A stretch of DNA of 7,586 nt from Escherichia coli (GTDB lineage Bacteria; Pseudomonadota; Gammaproteobacteria; Enterobacterales; Enterobacteriaceae): assembly GCF_003334815.1 (NCBI RefSeq), contig NZ_QOWO01000067.1; one strand, given 5' to 3'. Position 1 is the first letter of the stretch, and every line of letters begins with the position of its first letter. A program made the position numbers and the translations under genes. Shown here in pieces: positions 1-7,586 of the stretch. The notes beneath the pieces are model-generated. The model was not told the origin of the DNA. It searched no databases and worked only from the letters and a program-made list of their open reading frames with translations.

Positions 1-156
1 TTAATGAAAACACTCGATGAACTGAACCAGTCGGGAAAAGGGAAAGTGTGGTTTGCGGGGCGAGGAACCGCCCCTGAATGGCAAATGAAACGGGAAATGT
101 TGAGTCAGTGTTATACAACTAAATGGCGAGATATTCCCCTGGCCAGGCTGGGTTAG
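1..156 (+). CDS. Possible 3' end of an unidentified gene entering from upstream of the window (partial)
   Basis: Frame 1 is open from position 1 to TAG at 154..156, reading ...GKGKVWFAGRGTAPEWQMKREMLSQCYTTKWRDIPLARLG*. It ends 1 nt before the convergent parR-like stop at 158..160. Too short for the supplied ORF track; I do not recognise the family. Confidence 0.25.
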   Translation, partial: LMKTLDELNQSGKGKVWFAGRGTAPEWQMKREMLSQCYTTKWRDIPLARLG

Positions 157-157
157 T

Positions 158-574
158 TCAGTCATCTCCGAACATATTTTCAGCGTTTCTTCTGGTCTGG
201 TCTTCACCGTCATTTCTCGACAGACTCTGCTCTGTAAGAGGAGTACTGCAATCCACAGACGTATGGAGACCAGATTGTTTTTCCAGTAATTCAAGCAATT
301 TCTTTTCAACCGAAAAAGCACCTGGTATTACGCTGGAAATCACCTTATTAATATCATCCAGAGTCGTATTTTCTGTCAGTAACTCCGATATCAGCAAAGG
401 AAGACGTTTATCTATAGCTGCAAACGCCGCACCAGTAACTAACATCGCGCGCATGAAACGTCCCCGCTCCTTCAGTTTTTCATTTGCAATGAGCTCATCT
501 GCTATCTTATCTCCTGTCCGTTCATCCGGGAAAAGTTCAAATGAGCAGCGTCTGGATTTATTTTCATCACTCAT
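158..574 (-). CDS. parR: ParR/StbB-like centromere-binding adaptor of a type II (actin-type) partition system
   Basis: 138-aa ORF. The N-terminal region (RRCSFELFPDERTGDKIADEL...ERGRFMRAMLVTGAAF...LLISELLTENTTLDDINKVI) follows the pattern I associate with the ParR family N-terminal ribbon-helix-helix, and it has an acidic C-terminal tail. ATG at 574..572 overlaps the parM stop (ATGAGTGA, 8-nt overlap). GGTGGT-type Shine-Dalgarno about 9 nt upstream. Confidence 0.8.
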   Translation of the reverse strand: MSDENKSRRCSFELFPDERTGDKIADELIANEKLKERGRFMRAMLVTGAAFAAIDKRLPLLISELLTENTTLDDINKVISSVIPGAFSVEKKLLELLEKQSGLHTSVDCSTPLTEQSLSRNDGEDQTRRNAENMFGDD

Positions 575-1547
575 TAGTCACACCACCTTTCATTTTTATC
601 ATTCCCATGACTAAATCAAACTGCGGGGATGAGCTCAGATAAAAGCGCTCATCAGGAACCTTAGTCAGGTTCTTCACAGCCTCGGCCACAATTTCAGCCC
701 CACCACCAACACACATTACATGTGTATAGTCGGTGAAACGGCTGATGACATCATTAACTCGTTTAATAAGCAACTTCTGCCGTTCATTGATAACATTAAT
801 GATAGACTCACGCTGTTCAGCATTATAAATGCGACGGGAAAGGTAGTCAGGTTCATTACGGTGCACAATGATATTGTCAGCCTGGAATGAGCTCACTCTT
901 GTATTAGCATGTACAGCCATCTGTTCCTTAACCCCGGATGTAATCAGGGACACGCCGATATTCGGATCACACCAGGTTTTTGTAATCCCTGTCATTTTGC
1001 TACGAACATGCGACACATCAAGAGTTGTACCACCGAGATCTACGATCAAAAGGGATTCATCATCCTCAAGCCCCGCAAGAACACTGAAACCAGCGGGAAT
1101 ACTTTCAGGAAGAACGGAAACACTGCGAATAACAAATGCATCACTCCCCTGCACCCGTACTTCACGCATCACATTTTTTTTCTTTCTTTCAATGTTTTGC
1201 TTATTTTTCTGATTGTTGGCGTCAAGGTATTCAGAGATCGGCAATGTGACGATGACATCAACAGGCTGCGCTTTCAGGCCGGTCTGCTGTAGCGCATGCT
1301 GAATGGCCACAACATTCACATCACTGTACTGATAGCGTGTTTCAGTCGTTACGACAGCATCAGCACTTAATGGATCAAATGAAAACTTCTCGCCGTCGAT
1401 CTCGTAATTAGCCGGAGCAGCATCATCCAGTAAACTAAAAGACCATTCCGGTTTAAAGCTGTTAGGGCTGATTAACGTTTTCACGTCACCATCCTCCAAC
1501 CAGGCAAGTTTAATGTTGGTAGAACCATCATCAATAAAGATTTTCAT
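567..1547 (-). CDS. parM: ParM/StbA-like actin-type plasmid segregation ATPase
   Basis: The track ORF 567..1616 contains MKIFIDDGSTNIKLAW..., the phosphate-1 DxGxT/S motif typical of the ParM/StbA N-terminus, plus VDLGGTTLDV (phosphate 2) and CVGGGAEIV (adenosine motif). I place the start at the ATG 1547..1545 (M24 of the track ORF), which has GGAG 8 nt upstream and gives 326 aa, a typical ParM length. The stop overlaps the parR start. Confidence 0.9.
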   Translation of the reverse strand: MKIFIDDGSTNIKLAWLEDGDVKTLISPNSFKPEWSFSLLDDAAPANYEIDGEKFSFDPLSADAVVTTETRYQYSDVNVVAIQHALQQTGLKAQPVDVIVTLPISEYLDANNQKNKQNIERKKKNVMREVRVQGSDAFVIRSVSVLPESIPAGFSVLAGLEDDESLLIVDLGGTTLDVSHVRSKMTGITKTWCDPNIGVSLITSGVKEQMAVHANTRVSSFQADNIIVHRNEPDYLSRRIYNAEQRESIINVINERQKLLIKRVNDVISRFTDYTHVMCVGGGAEIVAEAVKNLTKVPDERFYLSSSPQFDLVMGMIKMKGGVTNE

Positions 1548-1960
1548 AACCAGTCTCCGTTGCTCATAAACAAATAGAAAAAACAAACATGCTTCATACA
1601 TGCAATGTATATTCAATTATAATGAAAAAACGGTCTTTCTGAAAGGACAAATGCAACATAAAAACACGATAAATTGCATGTACATTGTACACACAACTTT
1701 AAGACCAGAGGAAATCATAGATACAAAAACATTATGAAGGTTATATGTGACACATAAATGCAATATAAAAACATCGTGGACATCATGGTTCAGGTTAAGG
1801 GAAAAGGAATGAAATGGTGAAACTGAGAGGAAAGGAAAGCGGTGACGAATCATGTCACCATAAACAGAAAGATGTCTAATGGGGACTCTTTAGGTACGTG
1901 AAGAATCCCCATAACGCATTTAAAAGACACACATCAGATACCCTTAAGGTATCCGATAGT
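1548..1960. promoter_or_regulatory. parC-like centromere/promoter region upstream of parMR, also the downstream flank of the ParA/RHH pair
   Basis: AT-rich non-coding stretch with repeated ATGCAA/TTGCAT units (around 1600, 1650, 1673, 1758). The unit AAATGCAA(C/T)ATAAAAACA occurs twice (about 1649..1667 and 1756..1774). Palindromes: ATACATgcaATGTAT near 1596..1610, GGTGAC-N7-GTCACC at 1839..1857, GATACC-cttaa-GGTATC at 1937..1953. The position matches a type II centromere/promoter; exact binding sites are not determined. Confidence 0.55.
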
Positions 1961-2269
1961 TTATTGACCTATTGCACCATCACGTTCAAGCTTCTCTCTT
2001 ATAGCCTCAATAATATATGAGCTAAAATCCAGAGATGTTTTACTGGTCGCTTTAAGTTCCGCATGAGCTTCAAAATACGACAGCGGTATGGCCTTAAGAT
2101 TCTTAGCCTTCGTCCTGGCAGCCACGGGACGACCTGAAACTTCCTCTGCACCTTCATTTGGCTGAGACGGGGCTGTTGCTGTTACGGCAGAAGAAGAAGT
2201 TTGTAATCTGGCAGAATCCACCAGGTTTTTCAGTTTTTCAGCCTGTGCACTAAATTTCGCTTTGCTCAT
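1961..2269 (-). CDS. Small ribbon-helix-helix-like DNA-binding protein, candidate ParG/ParB-type partner of the upstream ParA-like ATPase
   Basis: 102-aa ORF directly downstream of the ParA-like gene on the same strand. The C-terminus (AIPLSYFEAHAELKATSKTSLDFSSYIIEAIREKLER) fits a beta-strand/helix/loop/helix RHH pattern, preceded by a low-complexity, probably flexible N-terminal tail. Shine-Dalgarno is weak and an 86-bp gap separates it from the ParA-like stop, so the assignment is an inference from context. Confidence 0.55.
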   Translation of the reverse strand: MSKAKFSAQAEKLKNLVDSARLQTSSSAVTATAPSQPNEGAEEVSGRPVAARTKAKNLKAIPLSYFEAHAELKATSKTSLDFSSYIIEAIREKLERDGAIGQ

Positions 2270-2355
2270 GAGATAACCCAGGATGTTTGTTAGATACTTA
2301 AAAGATATCCATTAAAAGCCCAAAGGATACTATATGGATACCCAATAGACACACC

Positions 2356-3000
2356 TTACTGTTTGTTATTTTCAATCAGATGATTGATTTCTTCGATCAG
2401 GGCAATAACTTCCTTACCTCCTGCCGAATAGCGCCCATGAACAGACTCAGTGATTCCCATCCCAGTCTCAATGACATCCTCAAATTCTGCACGAGCAGAA
2501 ATGCGGCTCTTCATCAGCTTCAGATGTTTGAACGATGGCAGGATTGCATCAAGCTTAGGGAATTTCTTCTTGTTAGGATTAACTTTACAGAGATACAGGT
2601 GAGCAGTTATATCGGTCCCCATGATAGAGCTGATTTCGTCCAGTACTCCATCAAAATGCATCAAACCAATACGTTCAGTCAGGGAGTCTTTTGAAGGGAC
2701 AATAACGCAGTCTGCAAAGGCAATCGCAGTACGGGTAAGATCTGAGTCAAATCCCCCACAGTCAATAAGTAACGTCTTATCGCTGTTCTTGTAGGGAGTC
2801 ATAATTTCGATTAACTCATCCACTGTTTTGGGTACTTTCACGGAAATTTCTTTTCCTTCAGGTCTCAGCCCCAGAATGATAGAAAGCCCGGTATGAGTAT
2901 CCAGATCAACTGTATCAGACTTCATTTCACCAACAATGTTTACGGATGAAGTTGTCTTACCCACACCACCTTTGGGATGCGTATTAGCAATAACAGGCAT
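2356..3000 (-). CDS. parA: Small ParA-family (ParF-like, type Ib) deviant Walker-A partition ATPase
   Basis: Deviant Walker A KGGVGKTT near the N-terminus, LLIDCGG and a VIVP Walker-B-like hydrophobic strand. Start placed at ATG 3000..2998 (M23 of track ORF 2356..3066), with GGAG 7 nt upstream, giving 214 aa, the size class of type Ib ParA/ParF proteins that lack an N-terminal HTH. Confidence 0.8.
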   Translation of the reverse strand: MPVIANTHPKGGVGKTTSSVNIVGEMKSDTVDLDTHTGLSIILGLRPEGKEISVKVPKTVDELIEIMTPYKNSDKTLLIDCGGFDSDLTRTAIAFADCVIVPSKDSLTERIGLMHFDGVLDEISSIMGTDITAHLYLCKVNPNKKKFPKLDAILPSFKHLKLMKSRISARAEFEDVIETGMGITESVHGRYSAGGKEVIALIEEINHLIENNKQ

Positions 3001-3179
3001 AGTGTATCTCCAGAATCCACATGTAATACCCATAAAGACCCCATAAGACACCTTTCGGATATCCAAGAGGTACTCAATAGATGTTTTTTTACTCTATACC
3101 GGTCCTGCATGTCAACAGAATATGAAATACCGATAATATATCCATGAGATATCCGAAAGGGATTTAAAAAAGTCAGAGC
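3001..3179. promoter_or_regulatory. Promoter/operator region upstream of the ParA-like gene
   Basis: Non-coding gap between the recombinase stop (3180) and the ParA-like start (3000). Contains the palindrome GGATATCC (3057..3064) and GATATCC (3148..3154), related to GGATAC/GATACC motifs on the other side of the operon. Confidence 0.4.
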
Positions 3180-3959
3180 TTATGGAATTCTTTTGAGCAT
3201 AGACACCGCATCGGACTCAGGCATCGAAAACTGCACCCGGTGCCGTGCAGCCACATCCAGTGCAAACACCTTCGTGTAGACCTCCGTTGAGCTGATGGAC
3301 TTATGCCCCATCAGGCTCTGCAGGACCTTCAGCGGTATACCGGCATACAGCATATGCATCGCATAGGAATGGCGGAACGTATGTGGCGTGACCGGGACAG
3401 AGAACGTCACACCGTCAGCGGCAGCGGCGGCAACCGCCTCCCCAATCCAGGTCCTGACCGTTCTGTCCGTCACTTCCCATATCCGCGCTTTCTCTGTCCT
3501 GCCTGTTCGTTTATTACGCCGTTCCATGGGGATTTTCAGTGTGGCCACCATCGTCTGCAGCTGGCTGACGTACCAGGCGTCGGAGAGCGGAACCAGCCGG
3601 TGAGTCTGCTGACCGGCGGGCATTCTTCCTGCCGTCCTGGCGGCTTTTTCCGTCCGTTGTTTCAGGGTCGCAAGCTGCACAAACGGATACGGAGGCGTGA
3701 GCGAAAAATCCCCCCGCGTCAGCGCCAGTGCTTCATTAATGCGCGCACCGGTGTTCCACAGTGTGGCCAGCAGCATCTTGCGGCGCAGATCCGGGACGTA
3801 ATGGAGCAGGGCGCTCACTTCAGGGGCCAGCAGGTATTTGGGCAGTTCATCATGAACCATCGACATCTGGCGGAGTGCCAGCGCTGCCGGATAATCGATG
3901 GCAACAGGAAGCTGAGCGGCATCCCGGGCATGGTGGATCGGTGCCGGCAGGTGCTGCAT
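3180..3959 (-). CDS. Tyrosine site-specific recombinase (plasmid resolvase/integrase family, ResD-like)
   Basis: The C-terminal region carries the tyrosine-recombinase box II signature HTFRHSYAMHML...LMGHKSISSTEVYTKV (His-x-x-Arg, then His, then the catalytic Tyr), and an ARINEAL-type box I arginine sits earlier. Start placed at ATG 3959..3957 (M52 of track ORF 3180..4112), 1 nt after the stop of the upstream ORF, giving 259 aa. Overall it resembles plasmid multimer-resolution recombinases of F-like/I-like plasmids, as recalled from memory, not searched. Confidence 0.85.
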   Translation of the reverse strand: MQHLPAPIHHARDAAQLPVAIDYPAALALRQMSMVHDELPKYLLAPEVSALLHYVPDLRRKMLLATLWNTGARINEALALTRGDFSLTPPYPFVQLATLKQRTEKAARTAGRMPAGQQTHRLVPLSDAWYVSQLQTMVATLKIPMERRNKRTGRTEKARIWEVTDRTVRTWIGEAVAAAAADGVTFSVPVTPHTFRHSYAMHMLYAGIPLKVLQSLMGHKSISSTEVYTKVFALDVAARHRVQFSMPESDAVSMLKRIP

Positions 3960-3960
3960 A

Positions 3961-4374
3961 TCAGTGTTCACTCCACGGGGAAACGTCGGGCAGGTTTTCC
4001 ACAACCCTGTATTTTCCCGGATAACGGAGCTGGTTACCGCCACGCGTCCGGACGGTGACAACAAAACCCCCGCCCTGGTTGTTTTCGGGGAGCAGGCGAT
4101 CGCACTGCTCACTCAGCATGTGGATCACAAACGGCGCATCGCTGCCGTCTTCAAATATCAGTTCCAGCGCATCGCGGCCATCCAGCGTTCCCTTACTGAT
4201 GATGACGTACTCAGCCCCCCGCATCTCCCTGAGTAAATGTTTTGCCGCATCCGGGACAAGCAGCCTGGCTTCGCCGGCATTCCAGCTGAGGTAGACATAT
4301 CCGGCCTGCGCCTGTACAGACTGCCAGTAATCCGTTCTGGCGACAGCCTGACCTTCATTCTCAATAAAAAACAT
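3961..4374 (-). CDS. Hypothetical 137-aa protein, first gene of the recombinase operon
   Basis: Track ORF 3961..4413. I start it at ATG 4374..4372 (MFFIENEGQAV...) because of a strong AAGGAG 8 nt upstream. The stop TGA at 3963..3961 is separated by 1 nt from the recombinase ATG (TGATATG). No recognisable catalytic motif or membrane segments; family not recognised. Confidence 0.6.
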   Translation of the reverse strand: MFFIENEGQAVARTDYWQSVQAQAGYVYLSWNAGEARLLVPDAAKHLLREMRGAEYVIISKGTLDGRDALELIFEDGSDAPFVIHMLSEQCDRLLPENNQGGGFVVTVRTRGGNQLRYPGKYRVVENLPDVSPWSEH

Positions 4375-4410
4375 GGGTGACTCCTTTTTTCTTTTCCGGG
4401 CAGGGACGGT

Positions 4411-4495
4411 CATGCGATAACGTCATCCATCATCACTGCCCTTACCGTCACTCCGTCTGATAACATCATGCCGTTATCATCATCACCATGATAAC
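4411..4495. repeat. GATAAC/CATG repeat cluster, candidate recombination site or operator for the adjacent recombinase operon
   Basis: GATAAC at 4416..4421, 4459..4464 and 4490..4495, inverted GTTATC at 4473..4478, and CATCATCAC twice (about 4429..4436 and 4479..4486). Three GATAAC copies abut CATG. Lies 40 to 120 bp upstream of the operon start at 4374. Confidence 0.35.
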
Positions 4496-4811
4496 AAGCA
4501 TCCATATAACCACGCCGTTAAATTACCGGAGAGCCGTTTCCGTCAGATCCGACTTTTCGGAATATCACAACTTTCCGGAAGTGTACCACGCTGAGGAAAT
4601 AATCATATCGCTGTTTTCCGCCCCTGCGCGGCGCATCACAGGTCAGGGAGATGACACAACATATAGTGTCATCAGCAGCTGAATCCGGCACCACATGTTG
4701 TGCTGACGGGAGGTGGCGTTGTGTGGGGGGAGAAGAAGATCCGTAACCGCCGGAAACCGGATCTGCGCGGCGGGAAACGGGCAAGTGATATGGTAATTGA
4801 GCAATACACAC

Positions 4812-4867
4812 AAAATCATATCAGATATGATTTTCATCATTGATGATAGAACCATATCTGATATTAT
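4812..4867. promoter_or_regulatory. Palindromic operator array and candidate sigma70 promoter for the + strand operon starting at 4943
   Basis: Perfect 23-bp palindrome AAAATCATATC-A-GATATGATTTT (4812..4834); 13-bp palindrome TCATCA-T-TGATGA (4834..4846); 11-bp palindrome ATATC-T-GATAT (4854..4864). Candidate -35 TTGATG (4840..4845) and -10 TATTAT (4862..4867) with a 16-bp spacer overlap the palindromes. Confidence 0.45.
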
Positions 4868-4942
4868 AAGAAATCAGGAGCACACAAATCATACAGGATA
4901 TTATTTTTACCTGTCAGAACATTATCAGATGGAGCGTGCAGG

Positions 4943-5197
4943 ATGGATGAAGAAAGGGTGTTTTCACTCAGCTATGAGCAACTAACCCGAATAGCGGAAA
5001 AAAATATCCGTGAATGTGGGCTGGACAACCAGAGCGCCAGGTGTATCAGTGAACTGAAGGCCTCAGCTCTGCTGTGGTTGTGGTATGAACTGGCCATTCA
5101 TGGTGCGCCACAGAACAATCACGCACAGGCCCGGGAACGCATCGATACCGATTATCAGCGCCTCAAAAAACTCATCTGGTCGGAGGGTGACAGTTAA
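4943..5197 (+). CDS. Hypothetical 84-aa protein, first gene of a two-gene operon
   Basis: ATG at 4943 with GGAG about 10 nt upstream. The stop TAA (5195..5197) overlaps the next ATG (TAATG). No transmembrane segment; family not recognised. The + strand is preferred over the long antisense ORF (5063..5803, -), whose translation is an Arg/Pro/Ala-rich artefact typical of the reverse strand of a GC-rich gene. Confidence 0.55.
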   Translation: MDEERVFSLSYEQLTRIAEKNIRECGLDNQSARCISELKASALLWLWYELAIHGAPQNNHAQARERIDTDYQRLKKLIWSEGDS

Positions 5198-5787
5198 TGA
5201 CTCAGAGCCGCCGACCGTCGCCACTGCAGCGGAGAGTGCTGATTGTGCTGGCTGCGCTTGATGAAAAACGGCCGGGCCCCGTGCTGACGCGGGACCTGGA
5301 ACGGGTGCTGGAGCGAAGCGGGGAAGCCCCGGTCTACGGGCCAAACCTGCGCGCCTCCTGCCGTCGTCTGGAGGATGCCGGCTGGCTGCGTACCCTGCGC
5401 GCCCCGAACCTGCAGCTGGCAGTGGAGCTGACGGACGCCGGCCGGGCCGTGGCACAGCCTCTGCTGCTGGCAGAACAGGACCGCCTCCGGGCAGAACAGC
5501 GTGCGGCAGAAGTCGTCGTACTGCCGCTGGTCCCGGCAGCAGGTCTGCCCGCAGACGGCACTTCTGCCACTGATCTGGCGGTGGAGCTGAACGGCATAAC
5601 GTATCAGGCCTGCCGCGGGGATTTTGTGGTGCGTCTCGACGGCAGCACCTGTCTGCAGTTATGGAATAAAGAAGGCAGGGTGGTACGCCGGGAGGGCGAT
5701 CCGCTGGAAGTGGCGCAGTGGCTGCAGGCCTGTCATGACGCAGGAATAGAGGTTCGCGTACAGATAAATGAAAGTGCCGCTCCGTAA
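5197..5787 (+). CDS. Hypothetical 196-aa protein, possible winged-helix DNA-binding N-terminal domain
   Basis: ATG at 5197 overlaps the upstream stop. The N-terminal ~90 aa (LQRRVLIVLAALDEKRPGPVLTRDLERVLERSG...) has the hydrophobic/charged periodicity of a winged-helix domain (inference). The C-terminal ~100 aa is unrecognised. Markedly GC-rich compared with the rest of the window. Confidence 0.55.
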   Translation: MTQSRRPSPLQRRVLIVLAALDEKRPGPVLTRDLERVLERSGEAPVYGPNLRASCRRLEDAGWLRTLRAPNLQLAVELTDAGRAVAQPLLLAEQDRLRAEQRAAEVVVLPLVPAAGLPADGTSATDLAVELNGITYQACRGDFVVRLDGSTCLQLWNKEGRVVRREGDPLEVAQWLQACHDAGIEVRVQINESAAP

Positions 5788-5806
5788 GAACACGCCTGTG
5801 CACGGT

Positions 5807-6154
5807 TTACACATCATCCCATGGTGGCAGCCGGTTAACTTTCCTGCGCCACCAGTGGAAAGAGGCCATGCACAGTCCGAACAAAAAACCACCCGTGATA
5901 CTTATAATAATGGCCTCACCTGCCACCATTCCTGACGGCCCCCAGTAGGTAAACCACATTACACATCCCCAGGAAATGCCCCATAAGCCCCCCGTCAGCA
6001 CCGTGACCTGCCAGAACGGCATAAAGGGTAATGGCGGAAGCCGGATACCCAGCCGCCATAGAATACGCAGAAGAGGAGGGGCATAATTGCTCCGCCACAT
6101 CTTTTTGCTGTCCATCAGGGCAATGGCCCGGGCTTTTTTCTGCTCAAAGGTCAC
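5807..6154 (-). CDS. Small inner-membrane protein (two predicted transmembrane helices), function unknown
   Basis: 115-aa ORF with a GTG start at 6154..6152, preceded by GGAGG at 7-nt spacing. Two hydrophobic segments (VTVLTGGLWGISWGCVMWFTYW and MVAGEAIIISITGGFLFGLCMASFHWW) and a positively charged C-terminus. Convergent with the 196-aa gene (19-bp gap between stops). Confidence 0.55.
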   Translation of the reverse strand: MTFEQKKARAIALMDSKKMWRSNYAPPLLRILWRLGIRLPPLPFMPFWQVTVLTGGLWGISWGCVMWFTYWGPSGMVAGEAIIISITGGFLFGLCMASFHWWRRKVNRLPPWDDV

Positions 6155-6192
6155 AGGAGCACCTCCGTTCCATGATGTAAACGTGACACAGC

Positions 6193-6260
6193 TTATTGTT
6201 ATTGATTATTATTATCATGCTGTGATTATGTTATCACGCACCGGTACACGATAACAATAA
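6193..6260. promoter_or_regulatory. Inverted-repeat-flanked promoter region upstream of the immunity gene
   Basis: Perfect 10-bp inverted repeat TTATTGTTAT (6193..6202) and ATAACAATAA (6251..6260), separated by 48 bp that contain two TGATTAT-N-TTATCA(T/C)G direct repeats. An AAGGAG Shine-Dalgarno lies 7 nt before the ATG at 6273. Confidence 0.4.
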
Positions 6261-6272
6261 AGGAGAAACCAG

Positions 6273-6620
6273 ATGAAACTGGATATATCTGTAAAGTATT
6301 TACTGAAAAGCCTGATACCAAGCCTCATTATTCTTACAGTTTTTTATCTGGGATGGAAAGATAACCAGGAAAATGCAAGAATGTTTTATGCGTTCATCGG
6401 ATGCATTATCAATGCCATTACTTTTCCTTTTTCAATGAGGATAATACAGAAAATGGTAATAAAGTTTACAGGGAAAGAACTCTGGCAAAAAGACTTCTTT
6501 ACAAATCCAGTTGGCGGAAGCTTAACTGCAATATTTGAATTATTCTGTTTCGTTATATCAGTTCCTGTGGTTGCCATTTACTTAATTTTTATATTCTGCA
6601 AAGCCCTTTCAGGAAAATGA
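6273..6620 (+). CDS. Pore-forming colicin immunity protein (colicin Ia/Ib-type, three transmembrane helices)
   Basis: 115-aa protein with three hydrophobic helices (LIPSLIILTVFYLGW; MFYAFIGCIINAITFPFSM; LTAIFELFCFVISVPVVAIYLIFIFC). Convergent with the colicin gene, 17 bp from its stop, which is the arrangement known for immunity genes of pore-forming colicins. Its length matches my recollection of the Ib-type immunity protein, unverified. Confidence 0.8.
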   Translation: MKLDISVKYLLKSLIPSLIILTVFYLGWKDNQENARMFYAFIGCIINAITFPFSMRIIQKMVIKFTGKELWQKDFFTNPVGGSLTAIFELFCFVISVPVVAIYLIFIFCKALSGK

Positions 6621-6637
6621 AAGGGCATCATTATGTG

Positions 6638-7586
6638 TCAGATACCAATAAGTTTATTGACCTGCTCAATAAACTTATCATTAACAAGCGCACTCACAGC
6701 CGCCATAATAATTGCAAAACCCAGAATACCTACAGGGGTTCCCAGCATGACGGAAAACGTCCATGCTGTAACTGCTGAAGCAGCTCTTCCTGCTGCCAGT
6801 GATTCAAGTTTTACAAAAAATGGACGCCAGTTGTCCGTTTTTACAGCCTTTTGTAACTCCACAGCAACATCATAACGATCAATAACTTTTCCGGTAAAAC
6901 CAAATGCCTTACTGAACAGCTTAAAATTCTCCGCCATATGGACCTGATTAATAGCTTCCAGGGCTTTAGAAATGGCCATGCGATCTTGTATGCTATATTT
7001 CTTGTTCAGATTATTACGGAATTTATCAAAAGCGTTCAGTGCATCATCCACACTCTTAATCTGTTTCCCTTGAGATACAGAAGCCAGCTCCTTAGCAAGT
7101 TCGGATGCTTGTTTACCGAACTCATCATATATCGTTCTGTAGAAATCAGAGGTGAGTTTTATGGCATCCTTTACCATATTTATTTCATCCCTTTTTCTTT
7201 TCTCTTCCGCTATTTTCTGATTGATGTCAGCAAGCTGGCTACGGATATTCTCTTTTTCCTTCAACAGGGCATTAAGAGCGTCATTTGCATGCTTTTGTTC
7301 ATTTGTTCTGGCACTGACGTTATTTCTCGCCGAATTTATCGCAGATTCAGCAGAGGTGATTTTATTTCTGGCATCAAGCAATCGTTGCCGTAACTTATCC
7401 CATTCAGCAACTTCAGCATTATAAATTTTCTTGTCACCTTCCACATCCTCTGTAACCACCGGATTCCGGTCATTCAGAATATTGCGTTTATAGTCCAGAC
7501 CGGAATGGGTCAGAAGATAATTCAGGTTTGCACGGTTATCGATGACTGCGCTGGTTGTGATTTTTATCGTACCGGCAAATCTCGGA
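6638..7586 (-). CDS. Pore-forming colicin of the Ia/Ib family, 3' portion (channel-forming domain); 5' end lies beyond the window
   Basis: The frame is open from the window edge (first full codon 7585..7583) to TGA at 6640..6638. The track's GTG start at 7459 is an internal valine: manual translation upstream of it continues without stops (...TTSAVIDNRANLNYLLTHSGLDYKRNILNDRNPVVTEDVEGDKK...). The C-terminus (...DNWRPFFVKLESLAAGRAASAVTAWTFSVMLGTPVGILGFAIIMAAVSALVNDKFIEQVNKLIGI) has the hydrophobic helical hairpin of a colicin channel domain and matches my memory of colicin I-type sequence. Confidence 0.85.
   Translation of the reverse strand, partial: PRFAGTIKITTSAVIDNRANLNYLLTHSGLDYKRNILNDRNPVVTEDVEGDKKIYNAEVAEWDKLRQRLLDARNKITSAESAINSARNNVSARTNEQKHANDALNALLKEKENIRSQLADINQKIAEEKRKRDEINMVKDAIKLTSDFYRTIYDEFGKQASELAKELASVSQGKQIKSVDDALNAFDKFRNNLNKKYSIQDRMAISKALEAINQVHMAENFKLFSKAFGFTGKVIDRYDVAVELQKAVKTDNWRPFFVKLESLAAGRAASAVTAWTFSVMLGTPVGILGFAIIMAAVSALVNDKFIEQVNKLIGI

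Follow-up and report, generated by a model that had tools for sequence, protein, structure and literature searches.

The ResD recombinase (D protein) of the F plasmid and its target site rfsF make up a multimer-resolution system that is part of the ccdAB-resD operon, and ResD normally resolves plasmid multimers. In Acinetobacter, the exchangeable plasmid cassettes called pdif modules are bordered by XerCD sites, which are ~28 bp long and have inverted arms around a variable center. Here we describe a resD-rfsF locus, together with the adjoining partition and colicin Ib genes, in a 7,586-nucleotide stretch of Escherichia coli DNA (contig NZ_QOWO01000067.1 of assembly GCF_003334815.1; this whole stretch is called the window below). 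The window is very probably a chain of exchangeable blocks that differ in base composition and have been reassorted among IncI, IncK, IncF, and IncR plasmids by recombination. For IncI1 plasmids, a switch between Col and Delta types at rfsF has been published (Sampei 2010, in the form cited by PMC8004404), and rfsF–ResD-mediated acquisition of foreign segments has been proposed for IncR and IncFII plasmids (PMC9412624).

Judged by its matches, the window comes from a common IncI1 'Col-type' (ColIb-P9-type) plasmid, of which it forms the maintenance and colicin Ib region. In a megablast search of 72,556 plasmids, at least 5,000 records matched the window, nearly all from E. coli and Salmonella, and 371 covered at least 80% of it; the best full-length matches that we inspected were conjugative plasmids typed IncI1/B/O or IncI-gamma/K1. 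The IncI1 replicon (repZ/inc RNA) and the I-type transfer genes lie outside the window and are present on the matching records. Compared to ColIb-P9 (NC_002122), the window was 99.1% identical over 1–4748 and 95.4% identical over 4740–7586, with the same order of genes (impB, parMR, yegA-yefA, resD-yedA, rfsF, ydfA-ydeA, ybaA, imm, cib), but ColIb-P9 carries a 3,533-bp segment (a DUF4238 gene and others) between its rfsF and a second rfsF-like site, whereas the window lacks this segment and has one hybrid site in place of two. R64, a 'Delta-type' IncI1 plasmid (sequence NC_005014), shared the backbone left of rfsF (window 1–4747) at 99.1% identity; homology ended there, with pifA and other genes to the right of rfsF in R64 and ydfA-ydeA-ybaA-imm-cib in the window.

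Base composition and breakpoints

From the letters alone, the original prediction had called the window a compositional mosaic, and this description proved accurate. Overall GC was 0.471, individual genes ranged from 0.33 for the colicin immunity gene (imm) to 0.65 for ydeA, and GC in 200-bp bins was heterogeneous (χ2 = 281.5, 36 degrees of freedom, p = 8e-40). The standard deviation of bin GC was 0.097; in 300 first-order Markov simulations it averaged 0.035 and never exceeded 0.047. In the collinear plasmid NZ_CP147055 (90,105 bp, GC 0.499), the homologous 7.6 kb was in the top 0.8% of windows for heterogeneity, and the twelve most heterogeneous windows, which start at 71,250–74,250, all overlapped the homologous region. 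These values refute chance or a visual impression as the source of the heterogeneity, an account to which we give practically no credence. Per-gene GC also bore out the predicted ranking, in which the colicin, immunity, and partition regions are AT-rich, the recombinase operon is moderately GC-rich, and the gene at 5197–5787 is strongly GC-rich. Likelihood-ratio segmentation divided the window into six segments, 1–3201 (GC 0.421), 3202–4353 (0.594), 4354–5206 (0.472), 5207–5559 (0.708), 5560–6171 (0.560), and 6172–7586 (0.387), and segment GC of 0.39–0.71 deviated from the plasmid average of 0.499.

We mapped breakpoints from matches listed across the whole megablast ranking and by blastn against fetched loci. 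Thousands of plasmids matched parts of the window only, and matches among plasmids sharing parts of it ended recurrently at 3191/3192, 4747–4749, 4846/4894, 5787/5862, and 6249/6267. When module order was compared across related plasmids, as the prediction had proposed, breakpoints were placed at 3191/3192, 4748/4749, about 5200, 6249, and 7184. The breakpoint at 3191/3192 is in the last codons of resD; IncF and several IncI-like plasmids share resD from this position, and the final 3–4 residues of ResD depend on context. The dominant breakpoint was 4748/4749: stretch 4560–4940 was matched by 4,067 plasmids, of which 664 (16%) spanned at least 80% of it, and the other matches, in a sample, ended mostly at window positions 4740–4765 (query positions 181–206). 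Divergence from a collinear plasmid (L001) stepped at about 3200, 4772, 4978, 5202, 6200, and 7200.

The chain proposed above would consist of four blocks. Block A (1–3191) would comprise the end of impB, parMR, and yegA-yefA (GC 0.42); block B (3192–4748) resD-yedA and the left half of rfsF (GC about 0.59 over genes); block C (4749–6249) the right half of rfsF, ydfA, ydeA, and ybaA (GC 0.47 to 0.71 to 0.56); and block D (6250–7183) the colicin Ib immunity gene and pore domain (GC 0.38), followed by a central colicin region common to colicins Ia and Ib. The nearest relatives of these blocks differed. Block A had 99.7–100% matches in NZ_CP023356 and others, block B 99.7–100% matches in NZ_CP024481 and four others, block C a 99.7% match in NZ_CP024481 and others, and 6250–7586 had 99.7–100% matches in NZ_AP017613 and others. 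NZ_CP024481 was 98.9–100% identical over blocks A–C yet carries a colicin Ia cassette, and NZ_CP019173 was 100% identical over A and B, followed by another ydfA allele and no colicin. Among the matches listed, whole-window identity never exceeded 98.6%, and no record joined all four blocks at the window's level of identity.

Related plasmids kept the order of slots while their contents were replaced by distant analogues, with amino-acid identities of 37–39% for ParM, 27–31% for ParR, and 19–26% for the ParA-like ATPase, whose slot was inverted once. Upstream of resD, related plasmids had yedA, ccdAB, or two unrelated genes, the latter two arrangements being those of IncF plasmids (two unrelated genes in L012), and ResD and YdeA were conserved at 94–99% despite the swapped slots. 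At the ydfA slot, a patch from rfsF to the ydfA/ydeA junction (4772–5202) was 6–33% divergent from L001 between flanks that were 0.2–2% divergent; the two ydfA alleles share 57–61% amino-acid and about 70–74% DNA identity, compared to 97–99% for the overlapping ydeA. At the colicin slot, homology with colicin Ia plasmids stopped at 6249 and resumed at 7184, the Ia cassette being non-alignable at the DNA level. From 7184 on, the central colicin region was 96.5–97% identical in DNA, and the convergent layout of colicin and immunity genes was the same, whereas 6250–7183 is the Ib version, with an immunity protein of 25% amino-acid identity to that of Ia and a colicin C-terminus (315 residues) of 62.5% identity overall. 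The window agreed with ColIb-P9 at 312 of these 315 colicin Ib residues and at 110 of the 115 residues of the immunity protein. Thus, recurrent breakpoints, incongruent nearest relatives, and slot-wise replacement of cassettes support the modular assembly by recombination that had been predicted.

Three of the five compositional steps (3201, 5206, and 6171) lay within 80 bp of independently mapped breakpoints, step 3201 being 10 bp from breakpoint 3191, step 5206 being 4–12 bp from the edge of the ydfA/ydeA patch, and step 6171 being 78 bp from the left edge of the colicin cassette at 6249, although the weight of this coincidence is limited because compositional steps and breakpoints both tend toward gene ends.

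Reassortment of the blocks could have followed several routes. One is site-specific recombination by ResD at rfsF, in which the partner would be either a different plasmid or a second rfsF-like site and the resD side would acquire new right-hand cargo. Whole cassettes may have been replaced, presumably by homologous recombination in conserved flanks, as in the case of colicin Ia versus Ib, the ydfA alleles, and the ParA and ParMR variants. The junction in the last resD codons would represent a third route. Assembly mainly by insertion sequences or transposons is, by comparison, very improbable. Relatives of the window do carry ISEcp1-blaCMY-2 in ybaA, as well as IS26, IS903B, IS66, and IS100 near these genes, but a search within the window found neither a transposase gene nor an insertion-sequence end, the dominant breakpoint lies within rfsF rather than at an insertion-sequence boundary, and the Ia/Ib, ydfA, and ParA swaps occur without flanking insertion sequences. 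At 3191, 4748, 5200, 6249, and 7184, moreover, we saw no insertion-sequence remnants or target-site duplications.

The rfsF junction and composition of individual genes

The site at the dominant breakpoint is a 26-bp unit of the form GATCCG-N14-CGGATC, reads GATCCGTAACC joined to GCCGGAAACCGGATC, and is the sole such site in the window. Its GATCCG and CGGATC arms are common to all junction sequences, with homology lost at the center between 4748 and 4749. The same site is present in R64 at nucleotides 43,621–43,646, and the R64 block 'rfsF to yfcA' starts at nucleotide 43,620 (PMC8004404); because its position in R64 agrees with this published coordinate, we identify the window site as rfsF. 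From these comparisons, the main junction is a specific recombinase site rather than a set of generic repeats. R64 differs from the window at the center and right part of the site, having TGGGGTTTTCGGATC instead of GCCGGAAACCGGATC. Across six other loci, rfsF variants kept the outer GATCCG and CGGATC arms and varied at the center and inner arm bases; the variants included TGGGGTTTT in F and R64, GCCGGAAAC in the window, and ACCAGAAAC in pO157, and in some IncF plasmids a window-type right half was joined to the very different left halves GATCCGACTTA and GATCCACTTCA.

ResD of the window was 94% identical in amino acids to the IncF ResD encoded beside ccdAB, matched Xer/integrase profiles at E-values of 4.5e-24 to 1e-23, and aligned with visible catalytic Arg, His-x-x-Arg, His, and Tyr motifs (ARINE, HTFRH, GH, and Y). 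Compared to the F-plasmid system, DNA identity was ~93% over resD and 82% over the upstream region to the site, and the left arm of the site was the same, but yedA takes the place of ccdAB, the last 3–4 residues of ResD differ, and the DNA outside 3191 and 4748 is unrelated. YedA had no match in Pfam, NCBIfam, PHROGs, or PADLOC.

ColIb-P9 has a canonical rfsF at 15,611–15,636 and a degenerate second rfsF-like site at 12,052–12,077 (TCTCCGGAACCGCCGGAAACCGGATC) with TCTCCG as its left arm; the 3,533 bp that these sites bracket, which are absent from the window, have a GC of 0.534. The rfsF of the window is composed of the left half of the 15,611 site and the right half of the 12,052 site, and a crossover between these sites would be confined to AACC (4745–4748). 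We infer that the window site arose from two parental sites by deletion or exchange, with ResD catalyzing the join. Site-specific deletion between the two ColIb-P9 sites would be expected to leave such a hybrid, and exchange with a plasmid bearing the GCCGGAAACCGGATC right half would be equally expected to do so.

On a broader and rather speculative reading, which we regard as possible but unlikely, rfsF and degenerate rfsF-like sites would define cargo cassettes that ResD can mobilize, as a counterpart of pdif modules, and ResD would be a general driver of cargo exchange among IncI, IncF, IncK, and IncR plasmids, with much of the cargo being anti-phage (PifA, PDC-S06, and Abi-like). The window would then represent an excised or 'empty' state with a hybrid site, and, as the centers of the parental sites differ, the exchange might involve one pair of strands only, with replication following. 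Compared to pdif modules, which use chromosomal XerCD, the recombinase here is the plasmid-encoded ResD, and just one clear segment bracketed by two sites, that of ColIb-P9, was seen, by sequence comparison. The four genes of the 3.5-kb segment of the ColIb-P9 type had no PADLOC match. The slot beside rfsF is often anti-phage in other plasmids: it holds PifA in R64 (locus L023, 1142–3367; PADLOC E = 2.9e-290) and a PDC-S06 ATPase in pSMS35_130 (locus L004, 1703–3841; PADLOC E = 2.6e-285), and annotations in other records include 'anti-phage transmembrane ATPase', 'RES family NAD+ phosphorylase', and 'abortive infection protein'.

A different explanation attributes the compositional differences mainly to constraints intrinsic to the genes, such as amino-acid composition, membrane proteins, expression or silencing signals, or a GC maintained within a lineage, rather than to separate origins or recent assembly. 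Several genes fit this explanation. The imm gene encodes a small membrane protein and is low in GC at all codon positions (0.35, 0.31, and 0.34). For ydeA, GC at the first codon position (GC1) was 0.79, which reflects richness in Ala, Arg, Gly, and Pro, GC at the third position (GC3) was 0.68, and GC reached 0.71 over 5207–5559. A 54%-identical ydeA homolog (L021), which is preceded by an overlapping ydfA-like gene, keeps a GC of 0.67 in a contig of about 0.52, and homologs of 27–30% identity have GC of 0.44–0.47. A search of 5.8 billion proteins, a representative library, and the GC of homologs identified no GC-rich donor of ydeA.

Codon usage gave a divided answer to the expectation that its profile, like that of GC, would not be uniform: GC3 differed two-fold among the window genes (0.33–0.43 versus 0.62–0.68, over a total spread of 0.33–0.68), but no single gene stood out significantly from the backbone. 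In a plain G-test, the window genes seemed to deviate significantly from backbone transfer genes; we do not rely on this test, because the statistic depends on gene length and the effect was gone in a length-matched control. Only the GC3 of resD and ydeA was unusual compared to length-matched backbone blocks (P about 0.017), and the backbone is itself patchy, with gene GC3 of 0.39–0.64. Judged by codon usage at matched length, no individual module is clearly 'foreign' to the plasmid.

Several of our results count against reassortment of blocks as the source of the mosaic. None of the eleven genes had significant synonymous codon usage compared to length-matched blocks of backbone transfer genes (empirical P 0.08–0.39), a result that also favors gene-intrinsic constraints. 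No compositional step falls at rfsF, which is flanked by the steps at 4353 and 5206. The high GC of ydeA is an old sub-lineage trait, and thus GC alone neither dates nor sources its acquisition. Finally, around the crossover the two parental ColIb-P9 sites have only TCCGNAACC in common and their centers differ, an unusual situation for a complete exchange by a tyrosine recombinase.

Constraints intrinsic to the genes are nonetheless doubtful as the main cause, and they can account for some of the composition but leave the mosaic structure unexplained. The two-fold difference in GC3 means that amino-acid composition is not a full account, steps 3201, 5206, and 6171 are near independently mapped homology breakpoints, and the blocks occur apart from one another in other plasmids. 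The sets of nearest relatives already suggest that block-wise trees would be incongruent, which would weaken this explanation. We favor reassortment of blocks, and we infer that their differing composition reflects differing evolutionary histories.

Modules and other features of the window

Coordinates of the window features are collected in Table 1. The accessory modules named in the original prediction are all present, with the qualification that the second of its two 'partition systems' consists of a ParA-like ATPase and a small protein of no known family.

Table 1. Features of the 7,586-nucleotide window, with positions counted from its first nucleotide.
Feature	Position	Strand	GC	Evidence
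impB 3′ end, Y-family DNA polymerase	1–156	+	0.49	RefSeq annotation of collinear plasmids; frame ends ...ARLG*
parR/stbB-like partition adaptor ('parB' in R64-style annotation, e.g. LC567069)	158–574	-	0.43	Pfam PF10784
parM, actin-like segregation ATPase, type II partition	567–1547	-	0.44	RefSeq annotation in collinear records
AT-rich spacer upstream of parM, presumed promoter and parC	1548–1960	.	0.35	
yegA, small partner gene of yefA	1961–2269	-	0.45	PHROG match
yefA, ParA-family deviant Walker ATPase, putative second partition	2356–3000	-	0.43	NF041546, RefSeq
yefA-resD spacer with 13-nt inverted repeat	3001–3179	.		Shuffle test
resD, tyrosine recombinase	3180–3959	-	0.59	Xer/integrase-type NCBIfam matches
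yedA, first gene of resD operon	3961–4374	-	0.56	Slot comparison
568-bp yedA-ydfA spacer	4375–4942	.		Holds rfsF and inverted repeat
rfsF, ResD recombination site	4738–4763	+		Junction comparison; R64 coordinate
Inverted repeat with 18-nt arms upstream of ydfA, probable operator	4815–4867	.		Shuffle test
ydfA, small gene with two alleles	4943–5197	+	0.50	
ydeA, GC-rich gene, predicted winged-helix DNA-binding	5197–5787	+	0.65	
ybaA, DUF6404 membrane protein	5807–6154	-	0.54	RefSeq; PHROG 31022, 3.9e-38
Colicin Ib-specific cassette (immunity gene and pore-forming domain)	6250–7183	.	0.376	Homology to colicin Ia plasmids interrupted
imm, colicin Ib immunity gene	6273–6620	+	0.33 (lowest in window)	ColIb-P9 identity
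Colicin Ib gene 3′ part, C-terminal 315 codons, runs off window	6638–7586	-	0.41	ColIb-P9 identity

The first partition module is of type II (ParMRC) by its genes, with parM and an overlapping ParR/StbB adaptor gene in one operon. The adaptor matched Pfam Plasmid_stab_B (PF10784) at E = 1.1e-27 and a PHROG partition protein at 1.6e-11; for ParM, NCBIfam gave just weak actin-fold matches, and the RefSeq name is 'plasmid segregation protein ParM'. In the spacer upstream of parM, neither direct repeats (P = 0.20) nor inverted repeats (P = 0.17) exceeded those of shuffled sequences, and no tandem repeats were found. Over its first 3.2 kb the window showed seven differences from L001, five of which fell at 1601–1700 within this spacer; this cluster may represent a small patch of recombination or a regulatory or centromere region that evolves fast.

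For the second module, YefA (RefSeq 'ParA family protein') matched the ParA_partition model NF041546 at E = 1.6e-14, with 53.9 bits falling below the 180-bit cut-off, and YegA matched PHROG 19714, of unknown function, at 3.2e-17. YegA had no match in Pfam, NCBIfam, or PADLOC, and a PDB sequence search, which bears on the idea that YegA might be a ribbon-helix-helix protein like ParG, gave chance annexin matches only. No ParB or ParG partner was recognized for yefA as expected of a type I system, and no centromere repeats were identified in the window. Because YegA matches no Pfam, NCBIfam, or PDB family and no centromere repeats were identified, this second system stays putative.

The junctions between modules had also been described as repeat-rich, which held for some of them. 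Three of the five intergenic regions (3001–3179, 4375–4942, and 6155–6272) had an excess of inverted repeats (P ≤ 0.01), but the parM-yegA and yegA-yefA spacers had repeat content no higher than shuffles, a tandem-repeat search of the window returned three trivial hits with no real arrays or iterons, and a generic repeat finder returned mainly short two-copy chance families, leaving long repeats at junctions unsupported. The yefA-resD spacer contains a perfect 13-nucleotide inverted repeat, whose arms (3051–3063 and 3148–3160, 84 bp apart) include TTTCGGATATC and GATATCCGAAA. This length was reached in none of 200 shuffles, and the repeat may serve yefA-yegA as an operator or a centromere-like element. 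The longer inverted repeat at 4815–4867 (P < 0.005 compared to shuffles) overlaps a promoter-like match at 4840–4867 and is a plausible candidate operator for the winged-helix protein YdeA. An Rfam scan gave two sub-threshold matches, to mir-463 and snoRNA sR14, which we rejected as chance; the mir-463 match is this inverted repeat itself and scored 30.6 bits compared to a gathering score of 70. Promoter and terminator counts across the window were at the level of shuffles and were useless for placing module borders.

The YdeA family is small, with 221 representatives that include many fragments, and the search of 5.8 billion proteins returned near-identical enterobacterial plasmid proteins only as close relatives of YdeA. 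An AlphaFold model from 19 sequences had a pLDDT of 90.4, and the first ~100 residues had Foldseek matches to MarR/PadR regulators (E about 5e-4); the protein is thus predicted to begin with a MarR/PadR-like winged-helix domain, followed by a long helix and a C-terminal domain rich in beta structure, the last of which had no match among the top PDB matches from Foldseek. Some YdeA relatives of 303–428 residues have an extra C-terminal extension, compared to 169–214 residues for close relatives. A 246-codon open reading frame rich in Pro, Arg, and Ala runs antisense across ydeA (5063–5803, minus strand); it is most likely an artefact of high GC and few stop codons rather than a gene. YdfA had no match in Pfam, NCBIfam, PHROG, or PADLOC. 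In IncI1 plasmids with blaCMY-2, ISEcp1-blaCMY-2 is inserted inside ybaA (locus L011, 11,014–14,093), and the flanks of this insertion overlap by 5 bp at window 5952–5956, consistent with a 5-bp target-site duplication.

Relevance for IncI1 plasmids

The switch at rfsF, the swap of the colicin Ia and Ib cassettes, and the sharing of resD between IncI and IncF plasmids are already known and ordinary for such plasmids. Our analysis makes minor additions, which are the hybrid rfsF of the window, the second rfsF-like site of ColIb-P9, the ydfA patch from rfsF to the start of ydeA, and the finding that three compositional steps coincide with breakpoints. In E. coli and Salmonella, IncI1 plasmids play a major part in carrying blaCMY-2 and blaCTX-M. 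In practical terms, no other part of the plasmid is as compositionally patchy as this region, the nearest relatives of its blocks differ, and rfsF is its dominant junction. Recombination points in the backbone are useful for plasmid typing and outbreak tracing, as a tree built across breakpoints mixes histories. Current understanding is left unchanged, with the comparative picture drawn from R64, ColIb-P9, and related plasmids confirmed and refined.

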